This document shows, in pieces, positions 6,133-27,110 of a stretch of 43,870 nt of DNA (position 1 is the stretch's first letter; the number at the start of each line of letters is the position of its first letter). Position numbers and translations under genes: made by a program. Origin of the DNA: Actinomycetota bacterium (GTDB lineage Bacteria > Actinomycetota > Acidimicrobiia > Acidimicrobiales > Ilumatobacteraceae); NCBI GenBank assembly GCA_046093625.1, contig JBJTFY010000160.1, positions 1 through 43,870 of the forward strand, in the 5' to 3' direction. The notes beneath the pieces were generated by a model. It ran no database searches. It had not been told where the DNA came from and saw only the letters and a list, made by a program, of their open reading frames with translations.

Positions 6133-6208
6133 TGGTGGTCGAGACCGGCGTCGATCCGGTGACCCTACGCTTTTCAGGCGTATGCTCTGCCGACTGAGCT
6201 ACTCGACC
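6133..6208 (-). tRNA. tRNA-Phe (GAA), CCA encoded
   Basis: The reverse complement reads GGTCGAGTAGCTCAGTCGG...ACGCCTGAAAAGCGT...GGATCGACGCCGGTCTCGACCACCA. Anticodon loop CUGAAAA. 76 nt. Confidence 0.93.
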
Positions 6209-6229
6209 TCGTGCGCCAAGGCGCACTTG

Positions 6230-6303
6230 CGGTCCCGACGGGACTCGAACCCGCGACCTCCGGCTTGACAGGCCGGCGTGAACTCCAACTTCACCACGAG
6301 ACC
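6230..6303 (-). tRNA. tRNA-Asp (GTC), CCA not encoded
   Basis: The reverse complement reads GGTCTCGTGGTGAAGTTGG...CCGGCCTGTCAAGCCGG...GGGTTCGAGTCCCGTCGGGACCG. Anticodon loop CUGUCAA. Confidence 0.92.
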
Positions 6304-6375
6304 AAACGTGTTGGCTATGTACTTCACTGTGCACTTACTCGAGCAACTCACTTGCCTCACCGGTGAACCGGTTCG

Positions 6376-6448
6376 CACCCCCAACGGGATTCGAACCCGT
6401 GCCGCCACCTTGAAAGGGTGGTGTCCTAGGCCACTAGACGATGGGGGC
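6376..6448 (-). tRNA. tRNA-Glu (TTC), CCA not encoded
   Basis: The reverse complement reads GCCCCCATCGTCTAGTGGCCTAGGACACCACCCTTTCAAGGTGG...ACGGGTTCGAATCCCGTTGGGGGTG. Anticodon loop CUUUCAA. The acceptor stem closes with an apparent G1.U72 pair. Confidence 0.9.
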
Positions 6449-6513: not shown

Positions 6514-7011
6514 TCAGCCCTGCATGAGGGCGGTGACCGCACTGTCGAGAAGCCAGGACAGGAAGTTGTACATGGCCATTTCGGGTCCCTCGTCGGGGTC
6601 GACCACCTCGTCGTCGCCCTCGTCGTCGTCGGTGACGTCGAGGATGGTGCCCAAGATCAGGCGCACGCTGTTGAGCGACACGACGAAGGCGTTGAGTTCG
6701 GCCGCCGTCATCGTGCGACGTTCGTCGTCGGCGAGCAGTTCGTCGATGCGCGCGATGGCCGCCAGCCGGCTGGCCACCAGTTCGTCGCGCATCAGGCGTT
6801 GGTACTCGGCCTCGGCCGATGCCTCGCGGCCACCGCCCTCGGTGTAGGCCGGGGGGAACAATCTCGCCATCTTCGGGTCGTCGACGGCACTCGACCCCAG
6901 CAGTTCGCGCACTTCCCCGACCAGTCGTCGGATGAAGTGTCGCTCGTCGTCGTCGAGGTTGACGGCGAACTCCCCGCGGTGGGTCTCGAAAGGCGGGCGC
7001 CGACGCACCAT
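6514..7011 (-). CDS. DUF2017-type protein (conserved ClpS neighbour in actinobacteria)
   Basis: 165-aa acidic protein with LFPPAY...EAEYQRLMRDELVASRLAAI. A 1-nt gap separates it from clpS. Family assignment is from memory of the clpS-DUF2017 synteny. Confidence 0.6.
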   Translation of the reverse strand: MVRRRPPFETHRGEFAVNLDDDERHFIRRLVGEVRELLGSSAVDDPKMARLFPPAYTEGGGREASAEAEYQRLMRDELVASRLAAIARIDELLADDERRTMTAAELNAFVVSLNSVRLILGTILDVTDDDEGDDEVVDPDEGPEMAMYNFLSWLLDSAVTALMQG

Positions 7012-7012
7012 G

Positions 7013-7351
7013 TCAGGACCCCGCCCCGTCGTTGTCGGTGCCGTCTTTCTGCATCGTCGCCCACAGTCCGTGCTCGTGGAGTCGAAAGACGTCCATCTCG
7101 GCTTTCTCGCGGTTGCCCGCCGACACCACCGCTTTGCCCTTCTCGTGCACGTCGAGCATGAGGGAGGTGGCCTTTTCGAGGCTGTACCCGAACAACTTCT
7201 GGAACACGAAGGTGACGTAACTCATCAGATTGATGGGGTCGTTCCACACCAAGACGATCCAGGGATTGTCGAGGGTGGTGGACTCGTCGGTCTCGGGACG
7301 AACGACCGTCGAGGGGGCCGCGGCGACGAGAGTCACGCCTTGAACGTCCAC
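7013..7351 (-). CDS. clpS: ATP-dependent Clp protease adaptor ClpS
   Basis: Core WIVLVWNDPINLMSYVTFVFQKLFGYS...A..LMLDVHEKGKAVV. The GTG at 7351 gives 112 aa. The ORF maximum (ATG 7447) would overlap the divergent ctaB start. Confidence 0.85.
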   Translation of the reverse strand: MDVQGVTLVAAAPSTVVRPETDESTTLDNPWIVLVWNDPINLMSYVTFVFQKLFGYSLEKATSLMLDVHEKGKAVVSAGNREKAEMDVFRLHEHGLWATMQKDGTDNDGAGS

Positions 7352-7404
7352 CCCGCCATTGTCACGGTTGGTGGTGCGTTTCGCACCCCCGTACGATCGG
7401 GGCG

Positions 7405-8355
7405 ATGTCCGTCGGATCCCGCCCTCTCGTGCCGTCGCGGCTGGCACCGGGTGGAGTGGCGGCGCACGGTCCGCGTCGCGAGCCGCGCAGTGTTCTGGGC
7501 GGCTACGTCGCGCTGATGAAGTTGCGGGTGGTCGAGCTGCTCTTGATCACGACCGTTCCCACCATGGTGTTGGCCGACCGGGGATGGCCGTCGTGGGGTC
7601 TGGTCGGGGTGACACTCCTCGGAGGTACCTTGGCCGCCGGCGGTGCCAACGCCATCAACATGGTGGTCGACCGCGACATCGACGCCCTGATGGAGCGCAC
7701 CAAGGGCCGCCCGCTGGTGACCGGTCTGATCCGACCCAAACAGGCCCTGATTTTTGCATTGTCCCTGCAAGTGGCCGCTTTTGTGGTTCTGTGGGTCGGG
7801 GCGAACCTGCTGTCGGCCGTCTTGGCGGCCTCGGCGACCTTGTTCTACGTGTTCGTGTACACGATCTGGTTGAAGCGCACCAGCCGACAGAACATCGTGA
7901 TCGGCGGGGCGGCCGGTGCGGTGCCGGTGCTGGTGGGATGGTCGGCGGTTCAGAACTCCCTCGCCTGGGAGCCGTTTGTCCTGTTCACAGCCATTTTTCT
8001 CTGGACCCCACCCCACTTTTGGGCGCTGGCGATTCGCCACAGCGATGACTACAAGGCGGCCGGAGTCCCGATGTTGCCGACCGTGGTGTCGATGCGTCAG
8101 ACCGTGACCCAGATGTTGGGGTACACGATCGCCCTGACCGGGGTGACCCTGGCCCTCGGTCCGGTGGCCGATTTGGGACCGATCTACATGATCGCGGCGG
8201 CCGTGCTGGGCCTGGGTTTCGTCGCCGCGACCGTCGATCTGGGGCGTCACCCCACCGTGGCCCGTTCGATGCGCGTCTTCGGCTTCTCGATCACCTACGT
8301 GACGTTGCTGTTCGCCGCCATGGCGGTGGACGTCGTCGTCGAACACGGAATCTGA
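7405..8355 (+). CDS. ctaB: Protoheme IX farnesyltransferase (heme O synthase)
   Basis: YVALMKLRVVELLLITT, NMVVDRDIDALMERTKGRPL and the polytopic UbiA-family layout. 316 aa. Confidence 0.92.
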   Translation: MSVGSRPLVPSRLAPGGVAAHGPRREPRSVLGGYVALMKLRVVELLLITTVPTMVLADRGWPSWGLVGVTLLGGTLAAGGANAINMVVDRDIDALMERTKGRPLVTGLIRPKQALIFALSLQVAAFVVLWVGANLLSAVLAASATLFYVFVYTIWLKRTSRQNIVIGGAAGAVPVLVGWSAVQNSLAWEPFVLFTAIFLWTPPHFWALAIRHSDDYKAAGVPMLPTVVSMRQTVTQMLGYTIALTGVTLALGPVADLGPIYMIAAAVLGLGFVAATVDLGRHPTVARSMRVFGFSITYVTLLFAAMAVDVVVEHGI

Positions 8356-8509
8356 TCACAATCGCACGACCTGTGACCCTCGCCGACGCCCTCGGGATTT
8401 CGGTCTGATCAGGGCAAAGTGGGTAATGTCGGAGGTTGGAAAACGTGTTGTTACCCCCGAGGAATCCGCAACGGGTCCCTCTCGTTGCGCGTGAAGCGAG
8501 CCATCTCGA

Positions 8510-10123
8510 ATGACAACAATTGATACGCACCACGCCGCCGGTGAAACGGCGGCGCCCCCCGCCGTCGCCGCGTGGATTTCGTCGGCCGACCACAAGCAGG
8601 TGGGCCGTCTCTTCGTGGGCACCGGCCTCGTCGGACTACTCGGTGGCCTGGTGTTGGCCGTGTTGGTGGCGTTCGAACGCATCGACGCCCAGGGTTACCA
8701 ACTGCTCGGCGTCGATTCGGCGCCTCAGGTGCTCTCGGCGGCCCGACTCCTGTTGACCTTCGGCGCCGTGGCCCCCTTGCTCCTCGGCATCGCCGTGGCG
8801 ATCGTGCCGTTGCAGCTCGGTGCGCGGTCGTTGGCCTTGCCGCGACTCGCCGCGGGTGGGTTCTGGATGTGGCTCACCGGCCTCGGTCTGGCGGTGTTCT
8901 CGATCATCGCCAATGGCGGACCCGGGGGCGGCTCGTCCGACATGGTCGACCTCTACCTTCTCGGAACGATCGTCATGTCGGTCGGCCTCATGATGGCCGC
9001 CGCGGCGGTGGCGACGTCGGTTCTCACCACCCGCGCCCCGGGCATGGGCTTGTTGAGGGCGCCGATGTTCTCCTGGTCGGCGCTCGTCGGTGCGGTGACG
9101 ATGTTGTTGGCGTTGCCGGTGTACGTCGGCTCGTCGATCTACCTGTACGTCGACCACAAGTACGCCCGGGCCGCTTTCGGTGGCAACGTCGGCGTGTCGA
9201 GTTGGGCCGGTTGGGCGATGTCGCAACCCTTCACCTACCTGTTGGCGATTCCGGCACTCGGCATGATCCTCGACATCGTCCCGGTGATGGGCCGCACGCG
9301 GTTGGCCCAGCGCAGCGCGGCCAACGTGGCCATCGGTGTCGTGTCGGTGGCGGTGCTGGCCACGGTGACCCAGACGATGGTGTCGTTGCCCTGGGAGGGC
9401 GAGAAGTTCCTCGACAATCTCGGGAACAAGATCGCCGACCTCCTGCCGTGGGGTCTGCTGACCGTCGTGCCGTTGCTCGGTGTGCTCGGTGTGCTCGGCA
9501 CGAGCGCGCTCACTCTCAAGAACGGCAAACCCCGGGTGGCGGCGCCGTTGGTGTTCGCCATGCACGGCTTGTTGATGATCGCCCTCGGTGTGGCCGCGCA
9601 CGTGTTGTGGTCGATCGACGATGCCGGTCTGCGGGGCTCGATCTTCGAGGCCGGCACGTACGTGGCCATCACGTTCGGCGTGGTGACGGTGTCATTCGGG
9701 GCACTGTGTTACTGGGGACCCAAGTTGTGGGGTCGGCGAATCCCCGACAAGGCTGCTCTTCCGTTGGCCCTGTTGGCGCTGCTGGCCTCGGCGCTCGGTT
9801 CGATCCCGTACATGATCGCCGGATTCGCCGATCAGCCCGCCGGTGCGCTCGACGGATTCTCGTACAGCGGTCCCCAAGACCTCTGGAACGTGCTCACGAC
9901 CGCGGGATTCGCGTTGATGTTGCTGACCACGTTGGCTTTCGTGGGCTTGGCGATCAAGAGTTTCATCGGCGGTGAGTCCGCTGGTGACGATCCGTGGGAC
10001 GGCCAGACGCTCGAGTGGGCCACGTCCTCGCCGCCTCCCGTCGACAACTTCTCCGATCTCGTGGTCGTCGGATCGGCCACCCCGCTCACCGACCTCAAGT
10101 CCAACACCGGGAAGGACGCCTGA
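8510..10123 (+). CDS. Heme-copper oxidase subunit I-like polytopic membrane protein lacking canonical heme/CuB ligands (predicted non-catalytic paralog)
   Basis: Shares CoxI landmarks with the adjacent ctaD: ADHKQVG, LPRLAAGGFWMW, TRAPGMGLLRAPMFSW, YWGPKLW and DPWDGQTLEWATSSPPPVDNF. It has only 6 His in total. By-eye alignment finds none at the six metal-ligand positions. Strong GC3 bias supports real coding. Confidence 0.8.
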   Translation: MTTIDTHHAAGETAAPPAVAAWISSADHKQVGRLFVGTGLVGLLGGLVLAVLVAFERIDAQGYQLLGVDSAPQVLSAARLLLTFGAVAPLLLGIAVAIVPLQLGARSLALPRLAAGGFWMWLTGLGLAVFSIIANGGPGGGSSDMVDLYLLGTIVMSVGLMMAAAAVATSVLTTRAPGMGLLRAPMFSWSALVGAVTMLLALPVYVGSSIYLYVDHKYARAAFGGNVGVSSWAGWAMSQPFTYLLAIPALGMILDIVPVMGRTRLAQRSAANVAIGVVSVAVLATVTQTMVSLPWEGEKFLDNLGNKIADLLPWGLLTVVPLLGVLGVLGTSALTLKNGKPRVAAPLVFAMHGLLMIALGVAAHVLWSIDDAGLRGSIFEAGTYVAITFGVVTVSFGALCYWGPKLWGRRIPDKAALPLALLALLASALGSIPYMIAGFADQPAGALDGFSYSGPQDLWNVLTTAGFALMLLTTLAFVGLAIKSFIGGESAGDDPWDGQTLEWATSSPPPVDNFSDLVVVGSATPLTDLKSNTGKDA

Positions 10124-10722
10124 TGCTCTCGTTGCCCTCGGCCCCCACCGCTCCGGCGCGCCGACAGGTGTTCGTCGCCACCGCACTGGCCGCTGCCGCG
10201 GGAACCACGTTGCTCGGTGGGATGCTCGCCACGTGGTTGCAGTTCCGCGGAGACGCACCGTTGCGCGAGTCGCCCAAGCGCGGGCTCATCGCCGACTGGA
10301 TGCCGGCCAAGGTCGTCGTTCCCGAGGTGGCCACGAACATGATGCTCATCGGTCTGTGCGTCGTCTGCGTGATGGCCCAGTGGGCGGTGTACTCGGCCAA
10401 GCGCAACGACCGCTCGCACGCCAGCCTGGCGTTCGGCATCACGATCCTGTTCGGTCTCATGGTCGTCAACGCCCAGGTGTACACCTGGACCCAGATGGGT
10501 GTCGCGGTGAACGACGGCGCGTTCCACACCATGTTCTACGCCGTCACCGGCACCATGATGCTGTTGCTGGTGTCCGGTCTCGTCTACACCGCGGTCGCGG
10601 CCTTCCGGTATCTCGGTGGTCGGTCCAAGGAGATCGAGATCGTGTCGGCGAGCGCCCTTTATTGGTACTTCCTCACGGCGGCGTTCACCGCGGTGTGGTT
10701 CGTCGTGTACGTGCAGAAGTGA
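10123..10722 (+). CDS. Cytochrome c oxidase subunit III-like membrane protein (diverged paralog)
   Basis: Aligns by eye to ctaE: AKRNDRSHASLAFGITILFGLMVVNAQVYTWT vs AQRKDDRNTNLWLTITALLGATFVGGQVYEFT, FYAVTG vs FYTLTG, and LYWYFLTAAFTAVWFVVYV vs LYWHFVDIVWIVIFTLVYL. TGATG start/stop overlap with the upstream gene. Confidence 0.72.
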   Translation: MLSLPSAPTAPARRQVFVATALAAAAGTTLLGGMLATWLQFRGDAPLRESPKRGLIADWMPAKVVVPEVATNMMLIGLCVVCVMAQWAVYSAKRNDRSHASLAFGITILFGLMVVNAQVYTWTQMGVAVNDGAFHTMFYAVTGTMMLLLVSGLVYTAVAAFRYLGGRSKEIEIVSASALYWYFLTAAFTAVWFVVYVQK

Positions 10723-10735
10723 CGAGGCAGAATCC

Positions 10736-11878
10736 ATGATCACAACCGGATCGAAACTCCTTTACGGGCTGGGAACCGCGACCGCGGTCGCGGCCATCGT
10801 GTGGTTCATCGCCAACGACGGCGGCGTCCTCGGCGTCGTGTCGCTGTCGTTCCTCGCCGTCGCATTGTTCTTCCTCGGTGCGGTGTCGTCGTACGTTCGC
10901 GACGGACACGTGCTCTCGACCGAGACCGCGGCGCACGCTTCCAGCAACGCGGCCCAGCGTGGTGTCGGCCGCAGTTGGTTCCCGTTCGGCACGGCGTTCT
11001 CGGCCGGCATGGTGGCGGTCGGGCTGGTGAGCTCGCCCGGCATCTTCAAGGTGGGCATCTGCTTGCTGTTCGCGATGCTCGGCGAGTGGCTGATCAAGAA
11101 CTGGAGCGACCGCGCGTCGTCGAACGCCGCCTACAACGAGAAGGTGCGCGCCTGGGTGGTGCACCCGCTCGAGATCCCGGTCGGTGGTGCGCTGTTGCTG
11201 ACGGTGATCGTGTTGTCGTTCTCGCGGGTCATGTTGTCGCTCTCGAGGGAGTCCGGTCCGATCGTGTTCGCGATCGCGGGCGCCCTCGTGCTGTTCGTCG
11301 GTTCGATGATCAGCGTCCGCCGCGGCGCGAGCCGACGCGTGGTTGGCGCGGTGGCCGGTGTCGTTCTGGTGGCACTCTCGGGAGCGGGCATCGCCCTCGC
11401 CCTCGACGGTGAGCGCCACGAACTCACGGTCGCAGCGGAGGAGGACCACTTCGCGCACCGTCCGTGCGGCGAGGAGGCCGAGGAGGCCGACGAGGACGCC
11501 GGGCGGGCCGTGTCGGCCAAGAGCAGCGTGGCCGCCACCGTGATCTTGCGCGACGGTCGTCTGTTCGCCGAGATGGACGGATGGTCGGGTGAACTCACGG
11601 CCATCACACTGCAGCGATCGAACCCCTCGAACATCTTGTTCATCAACGAGGACGACCACGAGCACCGCATGGTGGTCACGTACGGCATGGTCACCGAGGA
11701 TCTCGGTGGCGGGGTCAGCAAGGACACCGTGCTCGAGGCGTGCACGTCGTTGATCGGACAAGGTGGCACGCAAGCGGTGTCGGTCGTCATCCCCAAGCCC
11801 TCGTTCGCTAGTGAAGAGCCGTACTCGATCACCGTCCCCGGTGTGGAGGGTGCGTCGATCGAGATTCAGGTGCCGTGA
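10736..11878 (+). CDS. Polytopic membrane protein (~7 TM) with acidic linker and ~120-aa beta-rich, cupredoxin-like C-terminal domain
   Basis: Hydrophobic segments run through residue ~255, followed by the linker EEAEEADED. The C-terminal pattern ITLQRSNPSNILFINEDDHEHRMVV...YSITVPGVEGASIEIQV resembles a plastocyanin/Cupredoxin_1 sandwich without the C..H..M triad. A GAGG RBS lies 9 nt upstream. Confidence 0.6.
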   Translation: MITTGSKLLYGLGTATAVAAIVWFIANDGGVLGVVSLSFLAVALFFLGAVSSYVRDGHVLSTETAAHASSNAAQRGVGRSWFPFGTAFSAGMVAVGLVSSPGIFKVGICLLFAMLGEWLIKNWSDRASSNAAYNEKVRAWVVHPLEIPVGGALLLTVIVLSFSRVMLSLSRESGPIVFAIAGALVLFVGSMISVRRGASRRVVGAVAGVVLVALSGAGIALALDGERHELTVAAEEDHFAHRPCGEEAEEADEDAGRAVSAKSSVAATVILRDGRLFAEMDGWSGELTAITLQRSNPSNILFINEDDHEHRMVVTYGMVTEDLGGGVSKDTVLEACTSLIGQGGTQAVSVVIPKPSFASEEPYSITVPGVEGASIEIQVP

Positions 11879-11956
11879 GTCACCCCCGCCCCCATAGAGA
11901 GACGATCTGAACCCATGAGTACCGTGAGCAACGTGAACGAGCGAGCAGGAGAGACG

Positions 11957-13177
11957 ATGAAGTCTTCGCGTCGTTGGTCGAAGGTCGCGACGTCGACCCT
12001 CGCCGTTTCCGCCCTGATGTTCCTGGCCGGTTGCGCCAAGGACGCACCTCAGGACACCTGGCAGCCGGCCGGTCCGAACGCGGAGAAGATCGACAATCTG
12101 CAACGGCCGATCTTCTACATCGCCGGCGTGGTCGGATTGATCGTTTTCGCCGCCGTGGGCTGGGCGGTGTTCCGCTATCGCGATCGTGGTCAGGCGATGC
12201 CGGAGCAGTCGCACGGCAAGCCGGCCCTCGAGATCACCCTCACCGTCATCCCGGTGTTGATCCTCGTCGGTGTCGCGGTGCCCACCGTGGGCACCATCTT
12301 CGATCTGGCCAAGACCGACGACACCGAGATGACCATCAACGTCACCGGTCAGCAGTGGTGGTGGGAGTACGACTACCCGGCCGTCGGCACGAACGCCTCG
12401 GAGTTCGGAATCGCCGAGCCCATCGTGACCTCGGGTCAGTTGGTGATCCCGGAGGACACCAAGATCCTGTTGCGCGTCACGAGTCGCGACGTCATCCACT
12501 CGTACTGGATCCCCAAGTTGAACGGCAAGAAGGACGGTGTGCCCGGTCGCGTGCATCTCTTGCGCCTCGAGGGTTCGCAACCGGGCATCTACGCCGGTCA
12601 ATGCACCGAGTTCTGCGGTCTCTCCCACGCGTACATGCGCATGGAGACGGTCGTGCTCTCCAAGGCCGACTACGCCGCCTGGGTCGCGAACCAGCTCGAG
12701 GCCTATTCGTCGCCGTCCGCCGACAACGCCTTGGCCCTCGAGGGCGAGAATTTGTTCTTGCAGCAGTGCGCGCGCTGTCACCAGGTGAACGGGCTGCAGA
12801 ATTCCGACGGCACCCCGAACGTGGCCGCCCCCGACCAATACCTGGTGTCCGGTGCGGCGCCGAACCTGACCAACCTCATGACCCGCAACACCTTCGCGGG
12901 TGCGGCCTGGGATCTGTTGACCCCCGAGTGCCGCGACGACGTGTGGAACGCCTCCGCGGAGGAGTTCGGCGCGAAGTACCTGGCCGGCGTCAGCGAGGAC
13001 TGTCTCAACCAGAAGGATCTTCGCGAGTGGCTGCGCAACGCCCCCGCCAAGAAGCCCATGTACGCCGATCCGACCAAGTTGGCCGAGACCGGCGGTAAGT
13101 ACCGCGGCATGCCCGCCCTCGGCCTCACCGAGGACCAGATCAACGCCCTCGTCGCCTACCTGCTCGAGCGGAAGTAA
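11957..13177 (+). CDS. ctaC: Cytochrome c oxidase subunit II with fused C-terminal cytochrome c domain (caa3 type)
   Basis: Lipobox MFLAGC and two TM helices. CuA site HSYWIP...CTEFCGLSHAYM. Heme c motif CARCH with the distal YRGMPAL. A GGAGAG RBS precedes the ATG at 11957; the ORF maximum is 11915. Confidence 0.92.
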   Translation: MKSSRRWSKVATSTLAVSALMFLAGCAKDAPQDTWQPAGPNAEKIDNLQRPIFYIAGVVGLIVFAAVGWAVFRYRDRGQAMPEQSHGKPALEITLTVIPVLILVGVAVPTVGTIFDLAKTDDTEMTINVTGQQWWWEYDYPAVGTNASEFGIAEPIVTSGQLVIPEDTKILLRVTSRDVIHSYWIPKLNGKKDGVPGRVHLLRLEGSQPGIYAGQCTEFCGLSHAYMRMETVVLSKADYAAWVANQLEAYSSPSADNALALEGENLFLQQCARCHQVNGLQNSDGTPNVAAPDQYLVSGAAPNLTNLMTRNTFAGAAWDLLTPECRDDVWNASAEEFGAKYLAGVSEDCLNQKDLREWLRNAPAKKPMYADPTKLAETGGKYRGMPALGLTEDQINALVAYLLERK

Positions 13178-13192
13178 AGGGAGAACACTCGA

Positions 13193-15208
13193 ATGGCCAT
13201 CATCGAACGTCCCTCCACGGAAGTCGCCGTCGCCGGCGGTGCCACGATCGGCGTGAAGCCGAGCGAGGCCCTCGGCGTGTTCAAGCGTCCGGCCGCGAGC
13301 ACCTCGTGGCGCGATTGGCTCGTCACGGTCGACCACAAGAAGCTCGGCATCATGTACGGGGTCGCCGCGTTCTTCTTCGTCATCGTCGGCGGCTTGGAAG
13401 CCGTCTTGATCCGTCTGCAGTTGATCGCCCCGAACGGCAAGGTGCTCAACGCCGACCAGTACAACCAGATGTTCACGATGCACGCCACCACGATGGTGTT
13501 CCTGTTCGTGATGCCGATGGCGGCGGCGTTCGCCAACTACTTCGTACCCCTCCAGATCGGTGCGCGCGACGTGGCCTTCCCCCGCATCAACGCGTTCGGA
13601 TTCTGGTGCTTCCTGTTCGGCGGCATCTTCCTGAACACCTCGTGGTTCCTGGGTGGGGCGGCCGACGGCGGTTGGTTCATGTACGCCCCGAACTCGAGCA
13701 CGCTCTTCTCGCCCAGCCACGGCATCGACTTCTGGGCGATGGGCCTGCAGATCACCGGTATCGCCTCGCTGACCGGTGCGATCAACCTGATCGTGACGAT
13801 CCTCAACATGCGCGCTCCGGGCATGAAGTTGATGCGGATGCCCATCTTCACCTGGATGGTGTTGGTCGTGCAGTTCCTGCTGCTCTTCGCCATTCCGGTC
13901 ATCACGGTGGCGCTGTTCCTGCTCACCTTCCAGCGCTCGTTCGACGCCACCTTCTTCGACGTGGCCTCCGGTGCCGACCCGCTCTTGTGGCAGCACCTGT
14001 TTTGGATCTTCGGTCACCCCGAGGTGTACATCCTGATCCTGCCGTCGTTCGGCATCGTGTCGGAGATCCTGCCGGTCTTCTCCAAGAAGCCGTTGTTCGG
14101 TTACCCGATCGTCGCGATGTCGGGTGCCGCCATCGGTTTCGTCGGCTGGGGCGTGTGGGCGCACCACATGTTCGCCTCGGGCCTCGGTCCGGTGTCGGTG
14201 ACGGTCTTCTCGATGGCGACCATGGCGATCGCGGTGCCCACCGGCGTGAAGATCGTCAACTGGGTCATGACCATGTGGGGCGGCAAACTGCGCTTCACGG
14301 TGCCCATGCTCTTCTCGATCGCCCTCGTCGTGCAGTTCACCATCGGTGGTCTGTCGGGGGTCACCCACGCCGTCGCGCCGAGCGACACCCAGCAGACCGA
14401 CACCTACTACATCGTGGCGCACTTCCACTACGTGTTGTTCGGTGGGGCGATCTTCGGGTTGTTCGCCGGGTTCTACTACTGGTGGCCGAAGATGTTCCGC
14501 AAGCAATTGAGCGAATCGATCGGGCGTTGGAACTTCTGGCTGATGGTGGTGGGCATGAACATGACGTTCGGGCCGATGCACATGCTCGGTCTGCAGGGCC
14601 AACCGCGTCGTATGCAGGTCTGGACCGAGGCCCGCGCCGGAGACGGCTTCTTCAACCTCGGTTTCTGGAACCGCATCGCGTCCACCGGGTCGCTCATCCT
14701 CTCGGTCGGTGTCCTGTTGTTCATCATCAACGTGGTGTACACCCACAAGTCGAAGAAGGTCGCCATCGCGCCCCTCGATCCGTGGGACGCCCGCACCCAC
14801 GAGTGGATGACCGACAGTCCCCCGAAGGAGCACAACTTCGACTCCATTCCGACGATCGACAACCTCGACGAGTTCTTCCACCGCAAGTACGCCCAGGACG
14901 CCGAGACGCACGAGATCAAGCAGGTGGCCACGGCCGAGGAGGTGTTGGCCGAGATGAACGCACATCCGGACGAGCACATCCACATGCCGTCGCGTTCCTA
15001 CTGGCCGATTCTGTTGGCGCTGGCCCTCCCGATCATCGGTTACGGCCTGATCTACAACCGAGTCATCCTCGCCGTCGGTGCGGCCATGGTGGTGTTGACC
15101 ATGTTCGGCTGGGCGATGGAACCCTCCACGTCACCCGATGACGATTTCGACCCGCCCGCCCCCGGCGACGGTGGCGGCCACACGAAGGAGTTGGCGCCCC
15201 TTGGCTGA
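13193..15208 (+). CDS. ctaD: Cytochrome c oxidase subunit I (canonical ligands present) with ~120-aa C-terminal two-helix extension
   Basis: VDHKKLG, TMHATTMVF, GARDVAFPRINAFGFW, FGHPEVY, WAHHMF, PTGVKIVNW, VAHFHYV and PPKEHNF are all present. 671 aa, versus ~540 for a typical core. Confidence 0.95.
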   Translation: MAIIERPSTEVAVAGGATIGVKPSEALGVFKRPAASTSWRDWLVTVDHKKLGIMYGVAAFFFVIVGGLEAVLIRLQLIAPNGKVLNADQYNQMFTMHATTMVFLFVMPMAAAFANYFVPLQIGARDVAFPRINAFGFWCFLFGGIFLNTSWFLGGAADGGWFMYAPNSSTLFSPSHGIDFWAMGLQITGIASLTGAINLIVTILNMRAPGMKLMRMPIFTWMVLVVQFLLLFAIPVITVALFLLTFQRSFDATFFDVASGADPLLWQHLFWIFGHPEVYILILPSFGIVSEILPVFSKKPLFGYPIVAMSGAAIGFVGWGVWAHHMFASGLGPVSVTVFSMATMAIAVPTGVKIVNWVMTMWGGKLRFTVPMLFSIALVVQFTIGGLSGVTHAVAPSDTQQTDTYYIVAHFHYVLFGGAIFGLFAGFYYWWPKMFRKQLSESIGRWNFWLMVVGMNMTFGPMHMLGLQGQPRRMQVWTEARAGDGFFNLGFWNRIASTGSLILSVGVLLFIINVVYTHKSKKVAIAPLDPWDARTHEWMTDSPPKEHNFDSIPTIDNLDEFFHRKYAQDAETHEIKQVATAEEVLAEMNAHPDEHIHMPSRSYWPILLALALPIIGYGLIYNRVILAVGAAMVVLTMFGWAMEPSTSPDDDFDPPAPGDGGGHTKELAPLG

Positions 15209-15815
15209 CACCGCTATCGCCCACGGCCATGACGCCGGTCATGGTGCCCATGTGACGACCACCGGCTTGTCCAACAACAAGTTGGGAATGTGGATGTTCC
15301 TCGGTTCCGAGTGCCTCCTGTTCGGCGGTCTCATCTCGACCTACATGCTCTACAAGGGTCGAGTGAACTCGGGCCCCCAGCCCGACCAGATCTACGACAT
15401 CCCGTTCACCTCGGTGAGCTCTTTCGTCCTGCTCATGAGTTCGCTCACGATGGTGTTGGCGGTGTCGGCCGCCCAGCGCAAGGACGACCGCAACACGAAC
15501 CTCTGGCTCACGATCACCGCGCTCCTCGGCGCCACCTTCGTCGGCGGTCAGGTGTACGAGTTCACGGCCTTCTACCGCGAGGGTCTGGGCTTCACGACCA
15601 GCCTCTTCGGGTCGAGTTTCTACACCCTCACGGGTTTCCACGGTGTGCACGTGTCGGTCGGCATCATCATGTTGATGGCGTTGGTGGGCATGATCAGTCG
15701 AAACCGGATTCCGGGGAGCAAGGCCGAGTCCGTCGAGTTGATCGGCCTCTACTGGCACTTCGTCGACATCGTCTGGATCGTCATTTTCACCCTCGTCTAC
15801 CTGATCCCGTCCTGA
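15201..15815 (+). CDS. ctaE: Cytochrome c oxidase subunit III (short 5-TM form)
   Basis: KLGMWMFLGSECLLFGGL, FYTLTGFHGVHV and LYWHFVDIVWIVIF. Start is uncertain: the TTG at 15201 overlaps the ctaD stop by 8 nt, GTG 15252 is possible, and ATG 15138 would overlap ctaD by 71 nt. Confidence 0.88.
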   Translation: MADTAIAHGHDAGHGAHVTTTGLSNNKLGMWMFLGSECLLFGGLISTYMLYKGRVNSGPQPDQIYDIPFTSVSSFVLLMSSLTMVLAVSAAQRKDDRNTNLWLTITALLGATFVGGQVYEFTAFYREGLGFTTSLFGSSFYTLTGFHGVHVSVGIIMLMALVGMISRNRIPGSKAESVELIGLYWHFVDIVWIVIFTLVYLIPS

Positions 15816-15825
15816 GGAGCCAACG

Positions 15826-16161
15826 ATGAGCACCGCCACCGATCACAGCGCCGAGCACGTCGCCGAACACGCCGACGAGCACCACGGAGCGAGCGACAAG
15901 CAGTACGTCATCATCGCCCTCATCCTGGCCGCGCTCACGGCGATCGAGGTGTCGACCTACTACGTCGACTTCGGTCCGTTGTTCATGCCGACGCTCTTCG
16001 TGTTGATGACCGTGAAGTTCGTGGTGGTGGTGTCGTACTTCATGCACCTGAAGTTCGACAACAAGCTGTTCAGCTACCTCTTCTACTCGGGCTTGATCTT
16101 GGCGCTCGCGGTGTACATCGGGGCGCTGTCCACCTTCAAGTTCTTCCTTCAGAAGGGCTGA
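15826..16161 (+). CDS. ctaF: Cytochrome c oxidase subunit IV, Bacillus/caa3 type (COX4_pro-like)
   Basis: 111 aa with 3 TM and YVIIALILAALTAIEV...VKFVVVVSYFMHLKFD. GAGGAG RBS. Confidence 0.8.
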   Translation: MSTATDHSAEHVAEHADEHHGASDKQYVIIALILAALTAIEVSTYYVDFGPLFMPTLFVLMTVKFVVVVSYFMHLKFDNKLFSYLFYSGLILALAVYIGALSTFKFFLQKG

Positions 16162-16164
16162 CCG

Positions 16165-17052
16165 ATGCCGGCCATGGTCGACCCGTGGCGTTTCCAAGCC
16201 CATGTCGAGGTGTGGCTGCTCGTCGCCTTCCTGGTGGCGTCCTACGTGTACGTCGTGCGCGTCCTCGGGCCGCGGGCGGTGGGCCCCGGGGAGTCGGTCG
16301 TCACCCGGCGTCAGTTGGCCTGTTTCGTCGGCGGAATCCTGGTGTTGTGGATCGGATCCGACTGGCCGGTACACGACATCGCCGAGGAGTACCTCTACTC
16401 CGTGCACATGGTCCAGCACATGGCCCTCACGTACTTCATGCCACCGCTCGTCGTGTTGGCCACGCCCGAGTGGTTCGTGCGCACCTTGGTGGGACGGGGC
16501 CGGGCTCGGCGGGCGTTGAACTTCATGGCCCACCCGGTGCGGGCCGCCTTCCTCTTCAACGTGATCGTGATGGTGAGTCACGTGCCCGCCGTCGTGAATC
16601 GCTCGGTGTCGAACGCGCCACTGCACTATTCGGTGCACGTGTTGCTGGTGAGCACTTCGATCCTGATGTGGTTACCGGTGTGCGGACCGCTGAAGGAGTA
16701 CCACATCTCCTCGATGGGCAAGATGATCTATCTCTTCCTCAACAGCGTGGTGGCGACGGTGCCCGCGGGTTGGCTGACATTCGCCGAGGGCACGGTGTAC
16801 AAGCACTACGGTACCCCGATCCGGGTGTGGGGGATCTCGGTCAGCGACGATCAGCAGATGGCCGGCGCGATCATGAAACTGGGTGGCTCCATTTTCCTGT
16901 GGACCATCATCGGTGTGATGTTCGTTCGGAACTTCGTCGTCACGTTCCGGCGGGAGAACGAGGCGGCCTACGTGCGCAAGCCCCTGACGATGGCCGACGT
17001 GGAGAAGGCGTTCGAAGAGAGCGAACCGATCCGCGAGTCCCGCTCGAACTAG
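16165..17052 (+). CDS. ctaG: Cytochrome c oxidase assembly factor CtaG (Caa3_CtaG family)
   Basis: Polytopic protein with WPVHDIAEEYLYSVHMVQHMALTYFMPPLVVLATP. Positioned directly after ctaF, as in Bacillus ctaCDEFG. Confidence 0.82.
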   Translation: MPAMVDPWRFQAHVEVWLLVAFLVASYVYVVRVLGPRAVGPGESVVTRRQLACFVGGILVLWIGSDWPVHDIAEEYLYSVHMVQHMALTYFMPPLVVLATPEWFVRTLVGRGRARRALNFMAHPVRAAFLFNVIVMVSHVPAVVNRSVSNAPLHYSVHVLLVSTSILMWLPVCGPLKEYHISSMGKMIYLFLNSVVATVPAGWLTFAEGTVYKHYGTPIRVWGISVSDDQQMAGAIMKLGGSIFLWTIIGVMFVRNFVVTFRRENEAAYVRKPLTMADVEKAFEESEPIRESRSN

Positions 17053-17073: not shown

Positions 17074-17808
17074 TCACTCCCAGCGGAATGTGAGAGCGGT
17101 GACGGCTGGCGCGACCACGGCCCAGATGCCCAACACGATCCACGACGTTCCCGGCCGCTCGGCTCCGCCCACCAACGCGTCGCGCATGACGTCGGCCAGA
17201 GCGCCACTCGGCAGGCACTCGGCGACGGCGGCGAGCGGCCCGGGCAACTCGTCGAACGGGATCACCATTCCGCCCAGCAGCAACAGCAACAGGTACAACC
17301 CGTTCTGGGCGGCCAGGTTCACTTCGGCCCGCAGGCGCCCGGCGATGAGCAATCCGACACCACCGAAGGCGATCGTTCCCGTCACGACGGCCCCGATGGC
17401 GAGCAACCAGTTCGCCGAGCCGGCATCCCAACCCAACCCGAGCGCCACCGGAACCAGCACGACCAGTTGGATCATCTGCACCACGATGACCGCGGTGATC
17501 TTGGCCGCCAGCCAACGCGGTCGACCGAGGGGAGTGGCTCCCAATCGCTTCAGCACCTTGTAGCCGCGTTCGAACCCGGTGGCGATACCGAGGCTCACCA
17601 TGGCGCTGCTCATGACGGCCAGGGCCAACACCCCGGGCGTGAGGAAGTCGACAGGCTCGCGTACGTCGCCGGTGGGAAGGACGTCGACCGTCGAGAAGAA
17701 CACCAGGAGCATCACCGGGATGATGAGCGTGAGCAGCAGTTGCTCGCCGTTGCGGAGCACGACGGTGAGTTCGGCCCGCAATTGGGAACGGAAGGGACCG
17801 GCACTCAT
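17074..17808 (-). CDS. ABC-2 type transporter permease
   Basis: A 244-aa protein with ~6 TM and MSAGPFRSQLRAELTVVLRNGEQLLLTLIIPVMLLVFF. ATGA overlap with the upstream ATPase gene. Confidence 0.8.
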   Translation of the reverse strand: MSAGPFRSQLRAELTVVLRNGEQLLLTLIIPVMLLVFFSTVDVLPTGDVREPVDFLTPGVLALAVMSSAMVSLGIATGFERGYKVLKRLGATPLGRPRWLAAKITAVIVVQMIQLVVLVPVALGLGWDAGSANWLLAIGAVVTGTIAFGGVGLLIAGRLRAEVNLAAQNGLYLLLLLLGGMVIPFDELPGPLAAVAECLPSGALADVMRDALVGGAERPGTSWIVLGIWAVVAPAVTALTFRWE

Positions 17809-18791
17809 TGTTGGTTCCCGGTGAGCTGTTTGAAGACGTCCTCGAGACTGTTCATACCTGCGCGCAACTCCACGACGTCGATGCCCCGCTCGGACAGCCA
17901 CACGGCGAGAGCGCCGATGAGTCCCTGGGGTGCGTCCTCGATGGTGTAGTCACACGGTGCCTGTTCGACCAGCCAGCCCGCCAGGTTGTCGGGCATGTCA
18001 GCGAGGTCGAGTGGCCGTACGGTGCGCAAGCGGACGACCTGACGCGCCCGCCGCACGTCGTCGAGCGTGCCGTCGACCAGCACTCGCCCCCGGTCGAAGA
18101 TGACCACCCGGTCGCACACCTTCTCGGCCTCGTCGAGTTCGTGCGTGGCGAGTATCACCGTGCAGCCGGAGTCGGCGAGGTTCCGGATGACCGACCTGAT
18201 CATGGTGCGACCGTTGACGTCGACTCCGCTCGTGGGTTCGTCGAGGAACACGATCGCCGGCTGTCCGGCCAGGGCCAGGGCCAGGGAGAGGCGTTGTTTT
18301 TCGCCTCCCGACAGCCGTCTCCAGGGGGTGCGCCGTCTCTCGGAGAGTCCGACCAACTCGATCAATTCGTCCGGTGCGGTCGCGACCCCGGCCCGCGATG
18401 CGTACAGGCCGCAGTATTGACGCACCACGTCGATGGGACGGGCGCTCGGGTAGACGCCCCCTTCTTGGAGCATGATCCCCACCCGGTCGGCGAGCTCCCG
18501 GCGCCCGGAGTGCGGGTCGAGACCCAGCACGCTCACGTGGCCGGACGTGCGTCGACGAAGGCCCTCACAGACCTCGATGGTGCTCGTCTTACCCGCGCCG
18601 TTCGGGCCCAGCACCGCGGTCACCTGACCGGGTCGGGCGGAGAACGACACCGAATCGACGGCCAGCAGATCGCCGTAGCGGACGCTGAGGTTCTCGACCA
18701 CCAGTGTGCGCTCGCTGCGATCGACGCGGGTGTAGGGATTTTCTCCGGCGCCGCTCACCTCATCGAGACTAGTCACGGGGTCCAATGCCAT
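17805..18791 (-). CDS. ABC transporter ATP-binding protein (DrrA/ABC-2 type)
   Basis: Walker A GPNGAGKTS, signature LSGGEKQRL and Walker B IVFLDEPTSGVD. Start is uncertain (ATG 18791, GTG 18758, ORF maximum 18881). Confidence 0.88.
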   Translation of the reverse strand: MALDPVTSLDEVSGAGENPYTRVDRSERTLVVENLSVRYGDLLAVDSVSFSARPGQVTAVLGPNGAGKTSTIEVCEGLRRRTSGHVSVLGLDPHSGRRELADRVGIMLQEGGVYPSARPIDVVRQYCGLYASRAGVATAPDELIELVGLSERRRTPWRRLSGGEKQRLSLALALAGQPAIVFLDEPTSGVDVNGRTMIRSVIRNLADSGCTVILATHELDEAEKVCDRVVIFDRGRVLVDGTLDDVRRARQVVRLRTVRPLDLADMPDNLAGWLVEQAPCDYTIEDAPQGLIGALAVWLSERGIDVVELRAGMNSLEDVFKQLTGNQQ

Positions 18792-18829
18792 CGGTGTCGC
18801 CGAAGGTGGACGGGTAACCTTGGTCTCCT

Positions 18830-20125
18830 GTGATCGACGTTCGCCTGCTCCGCCACGATCCGGAATCGGTGCGCACCGCATTGGCTCGTCGGGGGAAGCC
18901 CGACGTGTTGCGGCAACTCGACTCGGCCATCGCCCTCGACGACGAGTTGCGTCGCATCACCGTCGAGCGGGACGGCATCCGGGCGCAGGTGAACGAACTC
19001 TCGAAACAAGTCGGACGCGCCCGTCGTGACGGCGACTCGGTCGCCGCCGAAGGTCTGCAGACCCGCAGTCGCGAACTGGGCGACGACGAGAAGACGCTCG
19101 CGGAGCGCTTCGACACCGTTCAACACGAACTGCGCGAGATCCTCCTGCGCATCCCCAACACGCCGAGCGCCGAGGCACCCGACGGTGCGAGCGATCACGA
19201 CAATCCGGTGGTCACCGGTCCGGTCGCGTTGCCCACGTCGTTCCCCGAGCACCGACGGGTGCCGCACTGGGACGTGGCCGCCGAGTTGGGCGTGCTCGAC
19301 AACGAACGCGCCGTGAAATTGAGCGGAGCGATGTTCACCATGCAACGCGGGGCGGGCGCCCAGTTGTCGCGGGCGTTGTGCCAGTACGCACTCGACCGCA
19401 ATGCCGACGCCTTCGAGGAGATCCGTCCGCCGTCGCTCGTCACCACGGCGACCCTCACCGCCACCGGTCAACTGCCCAAGTTCGCCGAGGACGCCTACGC
19501 GATCGAGCGCGACGACTTGTGGTGCATCCCCACCGCGGAAGCGCCACTGACGTCGATGTACGCCGGCGAGATCCTCGACGACAGCCGACTTCCCTTGCGA
19601 CTGATGGCGTACTCGCCCTGTTACCGACGAGAGGCCGGGTCGGCCGGGCGCGACACACGGGGCATGTTGCGCGCCCACGAGTTCGACAAGGTCGAGATCT
19701 TCGCCCTCAGCACGCCCGAACAGGCGCCCAGCGTCTTGATCGAACTGCGCGATCGCGCCGAGGCACTGATCGCCGGACTCGGTCTCCCGTACCGCATCAT
19801 CGAGATCTGCACGGGCGACATGGGGCAGAGTCACCACCGCAGTTTCGATCTCGAGGTCTACGCTCCGGGTTGCGACGCGTGGCTCGAAGTGTCGTCGGTG
19901 TCGTGGTTCAGCGACTACCAAGGGCGTCGGGCCGACATCCGATTCCGTCGCGCCGGCGAGAAGGGAACCCACATCGCCAACACCCTCAACGGATCGGCGT
20001 TGGCGGTGCCGCGCGTGTGGGCCGCGATCATGGAGAACTTCCGCGAGCCCGACGGCTCGGTGGTGATTCCCGAGGCGCTCCGCCCGTACATGCGCGGGGT
20101 CGACCGCATCGTGCCGCGGAGCTGA
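18830..20125 (+). CDS. serS: Seryl-tRNA synthetase
   Basis: MIDVRLLRHDPESVR N-terminus, a coiled-coil arm and class II motifs (YSPCYRREAGSAGRDTRGMLRAHEF, GSALAVPR). GTG start. Confidence 0.95.
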   Translation: MIDVRLLRHDPESVRTALARRGKPDVLRQLDSAIALDDELRRITVERDGIRAQVNELSKQVGRARRDGDSVAAEGLQTRSRELGDDEKTLAERFDTVQHELREILLRIPNTPSAEAPDGASDHDNPVVTGPVALPTSFPEHRRVPHWDVAAELGVLDNERAVKLSGAMFTMQRGAGAQLSRALCQYALDRNADAFEEIRPPSLVTTATLTATGQLPKFAEDAYAIERDDLWCIPTAEAPLTSMYAGEILDDSRLPLRLMAYSPCYRREAGSAGRDTRGMLRAHEFDKVEIFALSTPEQAPSVLIELRDRAEALIAGLGLPYRIIEICTGDMGQSHHRSFDLEVYAPGCDAWLEVSSVSWFSDYQGRRADIRFRRAGEKGTHIANTLNGSALAVPRVWAAIMENFREPDGSVVIPEALRPYMRGVDRIVPRS

Positions 20126-20129
20126 CGCC

Positions 20130-20765
20130 GTGAACCTGCGCGATCGCCGGGTGCAGTACGAGACGGCCGGCCTCGGGCGTGACGATCTCGACGAGTCGCC
20201 GGTGCAGCAGTGGCACGCGTGGTACGTCGATGCGGTCGACGCGGGGTTACCCGAACCCAACGCGATGGCCCTGGCGACCCTCGACGACGACGGAATGCCG
20301 GACTCGCGCGTCGTGCTGGCCCGTGGCGTCGACGACGACGGCATCACCTTCTTCGGCAATTACGGCAGCGCCAAGGGTCGACAGCTCGACCTCAACCCTT
20401 TGGCCAGCGCCGTGTTCCCGTGGCTCGGTCTGCACCGACAGGTGCGGGTGCGCGGCACGGTCGAGATTCTCTCGGTTCGCGAGAGCGACGCGTACTTCGC
20501 CTCGCGTCCACGCGAGAGCCAGATCGGCGCCTGGGCCTCGCCCCAGAGCAGCGTGATCGACGATCGAGAGGTGCTCGACCGCGAGGTGGAGCGGATCACG
20601 GCCGAGTTCGCGGGCCGCGAAGTGCCGCGGCCACCCCACTGGGGCGGGTGGTTGTTGACTCCCGAGTCCTACGAGTTCTGGCAGGGCCGCCCGAGCCGCT
20701 TGCACGATCGCTTTCGTTACCGCCTCGATCGCGACGGTTGGATCATCGAGCGCCTGGCCCCGTGA
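20130..20765 (+). CDS. pdxH: Pyridoxamine 5'-phosphate oxidase
   Basis: RVVLARGVDDDGITFFGNYGSAKGRQL, YFASRPRESQIGAWAS and EFWQGRPSRLHDRFRY. GTG start. Confidence 0.92.
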   Translation: MNLRDRRVQYETAGLGRDDLDESPVQQWHAWYVDAVDAGLPEPNAMALATLDDDGMPDSRVVLARGVDDDGITFFGNYGSAKGRQLDLNPLASAVFPWLGLHRQVRVRGTVEILSVRESDAYFASRPRESQIGAWASPQSSVIDDREVLDREVERITAEFAGREVPRPPHWGGWLLTPESYEFWQGRPSRLHDRFRYRLDRDGWIIERLAP

Positions 20766-22210: not shown

Positions 22211-22791
22211 CGTGTTCCCCCGACCAATTCGTCGAGCGCCGCGGTGAGTTCGGCAGCCGACACCTCCCCGGCGATCTGTCTCACGACCGTTCCGTCGGGG
22301 GCGACGAACAGCGTGGTGGGAAACGTCGCCACGCCGTTGACCGTGACCAACCGCGCGTCGGGATCGCGCAGGAGTTCGTAGGTGACCCCCACGTCGTCGG
22401 CGAACGATCGGGTGATCGTCTCGCTGTCCTGGGTGTTGACGCCCACGAACCGCACCGTGTCGCCGTACTGGAGAAAGGCCGCCTGCAAGGCCGGCATCTC
22501 GCGTTTGCAAGGCTGACAATTGGAGAACCAGAAGTTGACCAGCAGGGGTCGCCCGTCGAGCAAGGAGCCGGTGTCGACCTCGTTGCCGTCGAGATCGAAC
22601 ACCGTGGCGACACCCAGTCGTTCGCCGGTCAGTGGAGCGTTGGTGGGAATGCCCGGTTCCTGGTACTCGCCCGGCTCGTCGAGCACGACGTCGGTGTCGG
22701 TCCTCGCGTCGTCGGCTATCGCGAACACTGCGACGACGGCCGCCACCCCGGCGACCAAACCGGCGAGCAGGGGAACGATGCGTCGCGACAC
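22207..22791 (-). CDS. TlpA/ResA-family membrane-anchored thiol:disulfide oxidoreductase
   Basis: N-terminal anchor helix and a thioredoxin fold with WFSNCQPCKREMP (CxxC). GTG start. Confidence 0.85.
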   Translation of the reverse strand: MSRRIVPLLAGLVAGVAAVVAVFAIADDARTDTDVVLDEPGEYQEPGIPTNAPLTGERLGVATVFDLDGNEVDTGSLLDGRPLLVNFWFSNCQPCKREMPALQAAFLQYGDTVRFVGVNTQDSETITRSFADDVGVTYELLRDPDARLVTVNGVATFPTTLFVAPDGTVVRQIAGEVSAAELTAALDELVGGTR

Positions 22792-22844
22792 ACCGCGAGG
22801 CTAACTGCGGGACCACGGGGCCGTCCGACCGTCGACCTGGGATG

Positions 22845-22875
22845 CCCGGCCGCAGTGGGGGGAACTGCGGCCGGG
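22845..22875. terminator. Perfect 12-bp stem hairpin downstream of the whiB7-like gene
   Basis: CCCGGCCGCAGT (22845-22856), a 7-nt loop GGGGGGA, then ACTGCGGCCGGG (22864-22875). No U-tract. Confidence 0.45.
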
Positions 22876-27084: not shown

Positions 27085-27110
27085 CCGAGCCTTCTTTTGG
27101 TCTCCACCAT

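Follow-up and report, generated by a model that had tools for sequence, protein, structure and literature searches.

A heme-copper oxidase core without cofactor ligands is conserved at the head of a caa3 oxidase operon in Acidimicrobiia

We analyzed a 43,870-nucleotide (nt) stretch of DNA from an Actinomycetota bacterium of the family Ilumatobacteraceae (contig JBJTFY010000160.1 of assembly GCA_046093625.1, positions 1 to 43,870 of the forward strand), referred to here in its full length as the window. Three co-oriented genes, which we call X, Y and Z, lie between ctaB, the gene for heme O synthase, and a canonical caa3-type oxidase operon. X and Y encode homologs of oxidase subunits I and III, and Z encodes a polytopic membrane protein that ends in a cupredoxin-like domain. 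An earlier note on this DNA, made from its letters without database searches, had described the trio as an intact but non-catalytic shadow of an oxidase that is apparently transcribed together with the real enzyme, and the analysis reported here supports that core claim. The features that bear on it are the following.

8510-10123, forward strand: X, 537 residues, a COX1/CtaD homolog of 12 helices that lacks the ligands of the hemes and of CuB.
10123-10722, forward strand: Y, 199 residues, a COX3 homolog, probably of the CtaE type.
10736-11878, forward strand: Z, 380 residues, a CtaF-like N-terminus followed by three helices and a predicted cupredoxin-fold ectodomain.
8394-8509, forward strand: a promoter-like motif and the conserved 5' leader of X, recognized by comparative alignment; the promoter function is putative.
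7405-8355, forward strand: ctaB, heme O synthase of the UbiA family (PF01040, E 8.9e-64).
11915-17052, forward strand: the canonical caa3 operon, ctaC-ctaD-ctaE-ctaF-ctaG, identified by Pfam.
11915-13177, forward strand: ctaC, a COX2 domain fused to a cytochrome c domain (Cytochrom_C).
13193-15208, forward strand: ctaD, COX1, 507.4 bits.
After ctaD, within 11915-17052, forward strand: ctaE (COX3), ctaF (COX4_pro) and ctaG (Caa3_CtaG).

The coordinates, the overlap between X and Y and the gap before Z given in the earlier note were all reproduced on the window. The stop codon of X and the start codon of Y have one base in common within the TGATG at 10121-10125, and 13 nt separate Y from Z. The strong bias in GC content at third codon positions (GC3) that had been claimed for the trio was measured at 0.87-0.91 for X, Y and Z, the same as for the cta genes.

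X is recognizably a subunit I homolog. It scores 105.9 bits against PF00115 (gathering score 34.8) over positions 2-433 of the 436 in the model, compared with 507.4 bits for the neighboring CtaD, and its top match among solved structures is the CtaD chain of Mycobacterium smegmatis (6hwh_V, E 1.1e-40, HMMER). The TIGR02891 model (CtaD_CoxA) aligns to X over positions 1-501 of 504 with 185.1 bits, which fails the equivalog-level cutoff of 670.75, and the 157 bits obtained with NF050116 do not reach its cutoff of 880. The 12-helix core can be aligned with CtaD over its whole length, and a number of loop motifs persist, namely VPLQLGAR..PR, TRAPGM..R.P.F.W, W.PK..GR and, at the C-terminus, DDPW..T.EW.T.SP.P..N.

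What X has lost are the residues that ligate the cofactors. We scored six histidines, located at helix II, helix VI, the helix VII pair and the helix X pair, which bind the low-spin heme (two), the high-spin heme (one) and CuB (three). The ligand columns were read from pairwise alignments, from HMMER alignments to solved chains and from alignments of 17 and 134 sequences, all of which were concordant, and were counted in 70 true X orthologs and 62 neighboring CtaD sequences. None of the six is present in 66 of the 70 X orthologs and one of six in the remaining four, whereas all six are found in 62 of 62 CtaD sequences. The possibility raised in the earlier note that gapped alignments might place histidines at the canonical positions was not borne out, as pairwise, multiple and hidden Markov model (HMM) alignments found none in X. 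In the majority of the X family, moreover, the D-channel Asp is replaced by Ser or Ala, the Glu of HPEVY by Ala, Thr or Phe, the K-channel Lys by Val or Leu, the Mg-site Asp by Gly, and the heme-propionate Arg pair by Ala, Gly or Asn. The column of the cross-link Tyr holds Phe, Tyr or another residue, with Tyr in the X of the window and in 18 of 70 orthologs.

The median histidine count is 7 per X and 18 per CtaD, and the sole near-invariant histidine of the X family (>90%) is H28, which belongs to an N-terminal DHK motif common to real CtaD. X also has conserved polar residues of its own in or near the membrane helices: R79 beside the place where helix II has lost its His, E380 within helix X, and ER at positions 56-57. 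Because the core and the loop motifs are kept while the ligands are replaced, selection acts on the fold of X and not on its chemistry. The X of one distant relative (locus L082, see below) retains one CuB His, and this single relic would look like the stepwise decay of a formerly active site. Orthologs of X carry public names such as ‘cbb3-type cytochrome c oxidase subunit I’, ‘heme/copper-type cytochrome/quinol oxidase subunit 1’ and ‘cytochrome o ubiquinol oxidase subunit 1’ (P0003, P0015, P0074, P0087). For a ligand-less protein such labels are misleading, and the mis-annotation is systematic.

The similarity of Y to subunit III falls on the C-terminal helices of COX3. Y scores 36.3 bits against PF00510 (gathering score 23.8; positions 132-254 of 258), and solved COX3 chains match its residues 74-197 with an E value of 1.2e-7. 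The top NCBIfam match is NF050119 (aa3_CtaE_Actin, E 9.4e-11), whose 42 bits lie below the cutoff of 190. With a helix count read from the sequence, Y would be of the five-helix CtaE type. An oxidase subunit III has no redox cofactor to bind, which means that the statement that all three proteins lack cofactor-binding residues holds for X and Z and does not apply to Y. The overlap or abutment of X and Y recurs in every lineage inspected (L001, L082, L084, L085).

Z combines a four-helix, CtaF-like part (residues ~1-125) with another three helices (~131-235) and ends in an ectodomain with a predicted cupredoxin fold (~260-380); its length is 379-380 residues among close relatives. On its own, the Z of the window matches no Pfam or NCBIfam family (for PF12270, the CtaF family, none at E <= 0.05) and, as a single sequence, no solved structure; CtaF and auracyanin were reached by the family profile only. 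A library-wide search yielded relatives in 491 clusters at 50% identity (E <= 0.001), and a further homolog search seeded with the Z alignment broadened the set little, most of its matches being close relatives. Of 31 family members, 18 match PF12270 over their first ~120 residues (best E 6.1e-7), 6 match PF13473 (Cupredoxin_1) and none matches PF00116 (COX2). Three homologs scanned singly against PF12270 reached at most 25.2 bits, where the gathering score is 26.9. The family profile matched the CtaF chains 9wcx_m (3.6e-5), 8hcr_H, 7q21_F and 6adq_H at E values of 3.6e-5 to 7.3e-4, and auracyanin (6kol_A) at 1.2e-3.

An AlphaFold2 model of Z calculated with the 31-sequence alignment reached a mean predicted local distance difference test score (pLDDT) of 78.5, and ~90 in the C-terminal domain; a model from the single sequence (pLDDT 45) was unusable. 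Foldseek ranked cupredoxins at the top for the C-terminal domain, with auracyanin 6kol (E 1.3e-5) and the Cupredoxin_1 structure 4hcf, at a probability of 1.0. The domain is thereby predicted to have a cupredoxin fold, a Greek-key beta sandwich, and the modeling agrees with the cupredoxin-like C-terminal domain that the earlier note had seen in this polytopic protein. Across 84 sequences, no His, Met or additional Cys is conserved in the ectodomain, and for want of a conserved His or Met, Z should be unable to form a copper site of either the type 1 or the CuA kind. Of the 84 sequences, 80 have both Cys244 and Cys336 and the other 4 have neither, a covariation that fits a disulfide and an extracytoplasmic location. 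The ectodomain also bears a conserved polar patch (K262, R294, N304, R311, Q346). The charge distribution and the seven helices together suggest that the N-terminus of Z lies inside and the C-terminus outside.

Comparison of the Z profile with a profile of 20 CtaC sequences by hhalign gave a probability of 0.4%, that is, no similarity. Because there is no profile-level similarity to CtaC, we call the domain cupredoxin-fold and not subunit II. The I/III/II composition that had been read into the trio is therefore confirmed for I and III (its CtaE part) but not for II, Z being a CtaF-like protein joined to a cupredoxin. The idea of Z as a CtaF-CtaC fusion with a degenerate CuA domain was dropped as a claim of homology because the comparison with CtaC was empty, and is kept as a topological analogy only.

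The trio is conserved and its position is constant. A search with X returned 1333 matches at E <= 1e-10, and the best 120 of these are 50-99% identical, full-length except for six shorter or longer ones, and, wherever the source name gives an organism, labeled Acidimicrobiia, Ilumatobacteraceae, Acidimicrobiaceae or unclassified Actinomycetota. In a scan of one genome per GTDB species, 283 genomes have a Z relative; the labels of the best 80 of these are Acidimicrobiia, Acidimicrobiales, Ilumatobacteraceae, Acidimicrobiaceae, or only Actinomycetota or Actinomycetes. Those 80 species loci and four metagenome contigs (L082-L085) make up the 84 related loci considered here. X-Y-Z stands immediately 5' of ctaC in all 84 whose contig extends that far, and the species loci have the order ctaB-X-Y-Z-ctaC-D-E-F-G wherever the contig permits. 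In L082-L085, where the identity of Z is 30-34%, Z still adjoins ctaC, and X and Y are present where the contig extends. The junction of Z and ctaC is overlapping or touching in L083, L085, L026 and L079.

Upstream of X, a histidine kinase gene lies directly 5' in L082, L084 and L085, accompanied by a response regulator in L084 and L085. In L085, ctaB is set apart from X by DUF1501, DUF1800 and the two-component system, and in L084 there is no UbiA gene among the called genes 5' of X, where DUF1501, DUF1800 and a two-component system are found. The constant neighbor of the trio is thus ctaC and not ctaB, whose adjacency is lineage-specific. The ctaB-X-Y-Z-ctaCDEFG arrangement described earlier holds in the window, and its link to ctaC is constant, but the link to ctaB is not universal (L082, L084, L085). 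The upstream two-component system might regulate the X-Y-Z-cta operon. The region concerned is 3005-7671 in L084, 3168-7701 in L085 and 67-1242 in L082 (the kinase only), and the DUF1501/DUF1800 pair follows beyond the two-component system in L084 and L085.

Reading frames are intact in the related loci that span the trio, at X identities from 98% down to 40%. Ratios of nonsynonymous to synonymous substitution rates (dN/dS), computed against five relatives, are 0.10-0.20 for X, 0.10-0.19 for Y and 0.06-0.19 for Z, with 0.04-0.07 for ctaD and ctaE and 0.08-0.18 for ctaB, ctaC and ctaG. X, Y and Z are under strong purifying selection, at ratios similar to those of ctaB, ctaC and ctaG. The earlier note had held that the genes are not decaying pseudogenes and had pointed to broken frames or a dN/dS near 1 in orthologs as signs of decay. 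The values of 0.06-0.20 are well below 1 and the frames are intact among the 84 related loci, in line with what it held.

The spacer between ctaB and X (8356-8509, 154 nt) is conserved above synonymous sites. It contains the motif GATTTCGG-N17-20-TGGGTAATGTC at ~8394-8432, and the last ~45 nt before the ATG of X are nearly invariant in seven relatives whose coding synonymous divergence (dS) is 0.5-1.5. The GATTTCGG..TGGGTAATGTC motif is found again in the same place in distant lineages, L082 and L085 among them, in which X is preceded by a two-component system and not by ctaB. A generic sigma-70 promoter scan found nothing, a terminator scan was uninformative, and Rfam applied to the window matched three tRNAs only and nothing in the spacer. 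The element is probably the operon promoter with a regulatory leader, and with the motif read in this way X would be the first gene of X-Y-Z-ctaCDEF(G).

In the canonical operon downstream, CtaC keeps its CuA ligands (H195, C230, E232, C234, H238 and M241) and its CxxCH motif without exception in 20 sequences. Residues ~586-645 of canonical CtaD form a two-helix C-terminal extension like the second half of CtaF (PF12270 positions 68-127). The longest open reading frame of ctaE overlaps that of ctaD by 71 nt (15138-15208), which leaves the true start of ctaE uncertain. An open frame of 1432 residues runs antisense to Z, ctaC and ctaD (10685-14983, reverse strand); because the sense genes are strongly homologous and GC3 is near 0.9, it is almost certainly an artefact of high GC content.

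The trio does not appear to be a recent copy of the genes beside it. X scores 130-143 bits against mycobacterial CtaD chains and 115 against the chain from Corynebacterium glutamicum, compared with 110 bits against its own neighbor CtaD and a median of 109 across 62 CtaD sequences. X and mycobacterial CtaD also have in common the length of loop XI-XII and an LEWATS.PPP tail. The bit scores of X, the likeness of Y to actinobacterial CtaE and that of the N-terminus of Z to CtaF together provide a lead that the trio descends from an actinobacterial aa3-type core and not from the adjacent caa3 genes. We treat this origin as a lead because it comes from similarity comparisons, and because real CtaD also has a PF12270-like extension. 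There is a hint here that in Acidimicrobiia an ancestral aa3 oxidase of the actinobacterial type gave way to caa3 while its old shell was kept.

Several further genes surround the locus. Downstream of the caa3 operon, genes for an ABC-2 permease and ATPase, a seryl-tRNA synthetase and a pyridoxamine 5'-phosphate oxidase occupy 17074-18881 (reverse strand) and 18830-20765 (forward strand); they are also kept in the distant L084, which suggests that this contig, too, belongs among the Acidimicrobiia relatives. Three tRNA genes, Phe(GAA), Asp(GTC) and Glu(TTC), cluster at 6133-6448 (reverse strand) and adjoin a divergently oriented pair of DUF2017 (6514-7011) and ClpS (7013-7447) genes, and the same ClpS and DUF2017 pair lies 5' of ctaB in L001 and L085. 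Farther downstream are a DsbD_TM/CcdA-like membrane protein (21377-22918, reverse strand; 26.4 bits, just below the gathering score of 27.1) and a metallo-beta-lactamase protein with multiple rhodanese domains (25375-27204, reverse strand), an architecture like that of a persulfide dioxygenase.

The reading of the trio that we favor, tentatively and at somewhat less than an even chance, is that X-Y-Z is a redox-inert descendant of an aa3-type core that is co-expressed with caa3 as a non-catalytic structural partner or supercomplex adaptor. The trio would then be a structurally intact paralog composed of CtaD-like, CtaE-like and CtaF-like parts and a copper-less cupredoxin. Its transcription would start from the conserved promoter-like element, with the three genes leading the operon X-Y-Z-ctaC-D-E-F(-G). 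Its products would assemble into a membrane complex of ~24 helices that could bind neither heme a, heme a3, CuB nor CuA. Because the ligands, the proton-pathway residues and the propionate anchors are lost, such a complex should be neither an O2 reductase nor a canonical proton pump. It might instead be stoichiometric with the working caa3, either as a pseudo-dimer partner or as an adaptor that acts through its retained CtaE/CtaF-like surface. That surface could organize a respiratory supercomplex, given that in Actinomycetes complex IV is docked onto QcrB through the CtaE/CtaF surface. The subunit III equivalent of M. smegmatis consists of CtaE and CtaF, which make the main contact between complexes III and IV, via QcrB (PMC8361435). 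A supercomplex adaptor or a live/dead pseudo-dimer is plausible because X-Y-Z retains parts of the CtaE and CtaF type, and the conservation of the trio, its promoter-proximal position, its tight coupling and its inseparability from ctaC over deep divergence argue for a structural partner. In an exploratory partial Mantel analysis of rate covariation, r was 0.53 for X-Z, 0.34 for X-CtaD and 0.32 for Z-CtaD (p = 0.001), and 0.26 for the known partners CtaC-CtaD.

Several points weigh against a structural partnership. The Mantel test is unspecific, with r of 0.43 for Z-ctaG, 0.41 for Z-ctaB and 0.49 for ctaB-ctaG, and of 0.09 for the known partners CtaD-CtaE; we give rate covariation little weight, partners and non-partners being poorly separated by it. 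The co-assembly of X, Y and Z and their contact with caa3 are proposed from operon linkage and from this exploratory covariation, and operon membership is equally compatible with an assembly factor. The working caa3 may need no adaptor, because it has a subunit III equivalent of its own in CtaE and the PF12270-like helices of CtaD. There are no qcr genes near the operon in any locus examined. Furthermore, X, Y and Z evolve ~2-3x faster than CtaD and CtaE (mean distances 0.64-0.92 vs 0.26).

By analogy, the ghost complex could be a biogenesis scaffold or chaperone that transiently holds nascent CtaC, CtaD or CtaE, lipids or cofactor intermediates, in the way that NifEN, a paralog of the NifDK enzyme, serves the assembly of NifDK. 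The operon does carry assembly genes as well (ctaB at the 5' end in this lineage and Caa3_CtaG at the end), the residual rate covariation of Z with ctaG and ctaB points the same way, and partner subunits could fold against a template that imitates the I/III core. We nevertheless regard this role as rather unlikely: with all ligands and the propionate Arg pair lost, the handling of cofactors in the old pockets is improbable, the linkage to ctaB is not conserved, and ~24 helices encoded in promoter-proximal genes with overlapping junctions imply stoichiometric output rather than a catalytic chaperone. A hand-off of heme O or heme A from CtaB was also considered and was down-weighted, since the adjacency of ctaB is lineage-specific and the heme pockets have no ligands. 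The oxidase fold might alternatively have been repurposed into an independent device that is merely co-regulated with caa3, for instance a leak for ions or protons, a channel for gases or solutes, or a protein that regulates or senses. The X-specific polar residues R79, E380 and ER 56-57, the conserved polar patch on the Z ectodomain and the two-component system directly 5' of X in some lineages could be taken in this sense. It strikes us as improbable, however, because the canonical proton-path residues have been swapped for non-ionisable ones, no transporter-like motif or family match was found in Pfam or NCBIfam, and the strict adjacency to ctaC, with overlaps kept over deep divergence, argues for a physical and not only a regulatory tie.

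That the trio is a second working oxidase or nitric oxide reductase (NOR) with non-canonical ligands seems very improbable. The fold is fully kept, the cross-link Tyr persists in the X of the window and in 18 of 70 orthologs, and copper-less cupredoxin subunits occur in quinol oxidases and gNOR (bioRxiv 10.1101/2021.10.15.464467). However, H28 is the sole near-invariant His, the median His count is 7 vs 18 in CtaD, the Arg pair, the Mg-site Asp, the Glu and the Lys are replaced in the family majority, and every surveyed family of heme-copper oxidases (HCOs) has an active site that ligates metal (bioRxiv 10.1101/2021.10.15.464467). Decay into pseudogenes, or an annotation artefact, could draw on the faster evolution of X, Y and Z relative to CtaD and CtaE, but we count it as already refuted by the intact frames, the dN/dS of 0.06-0.20, the conserved lengths, the covariation of the Cys pair and the GC3 of 0.87-0.91.

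The superfamilies of the components are known, and the ligand-less trio is undescribed in the searchable literature, in which we found no description of a ligand-less HCO set, a broad survey of the superfamily included. Neither Pfam nor NCBIfam has a curated HMM for the trio, so the characterised family to which the earlier note thought it might already belong was found neither there nor in searchable papers. If confirmed, a heme-copper oxidase core that is selected without any cofactor would be a new class of respiratory pseudoenzyme, and a natural system in which what complex IV does structurally (supercomplex docking, lipid organization) could be told apart from catalysis. A stronger version, in which the whole oxidase core has turned pseudoenzyme and is either an obligatory architectural module that docks caa3 to bcc or one half of a live/dead heterodimer, we consider possible but doubtful. 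We know of no example of a whole oxidase core as a dead partner, and if true this would be the first complete heme-copper oxidase core in a purely structural role. There is a practical consequence as well, as metabolic reconstructions that use the labels of X could over-count terminal oxidases in Acidimicrobiia, including freshwater lineages, and could mislead toward high-affinity or quinol-oxidase respiration.

Among known systems, the trio is most readily compared with the actinobacterial aa3 core of the bcc-aa3 supercomplex (6HWH and 6ADQ from M. smegmatis, 8HCR from M. tuberculosis, 7Q21 from C. glutamicum), in which X corresponds to CtaD, Y to CtaE and the N-terminus of Z to CtaF. An outward-facing cupredoxin domain is common to Z, as predicted, and to the CtaC of actinobacterial aa3. 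Unlike the aa3 core, X-Y-Z has no ligands for heme a, heme a3, CuB or CuA and has its proton-channel residues replaced; it combines the CtaF-like and cupredoxin parts in one protein, Z, with three extra helices; the Z cupredoxin, unlike aa3 CtaC, has no sequence-level link to COX2; and the trio is encoded as a tandem that leads a caa3 operon which is separate and functional. The eNOR, bNOR, sNOR, gNOR and nNOR families have altered active sites that still bind metal, and the cupredoxin subunit of gNOR, like that of the bo3 oxidase, is without CuA ligands (bioRxiv 10.1101/2021.10.15.464467). Like X, the NOR families are divergent members of the HCO superfamily, but they are enzymes that keep hemes and metal ligation, whereas X keeps no ligands. 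The core proteins of bc1, which are inactive homologs of the mitochondrial processing peptidase (MPP), and NifEN are non-catalytic paralogs that were recruited as structural or assembly parts. Although their folds are unrelated, they resemble the trio in being dead or re-tasked paralogs under selection beside active machinery. CydB of cytochrome bd, finally, is a cofactor-less paralog of CydA within a pseudo-symmetric heterodimer. It is a single subunit from an unrelated superfamily and its partnership is proven, whereas the trio would be a whole multi-subunit core whose partnership is proposed here. Even so, CydB offers the closest analogy: a duplicated catalytic membrane subunit that has lost its hemes, has kept its fold and is co-expressed with the active copy.

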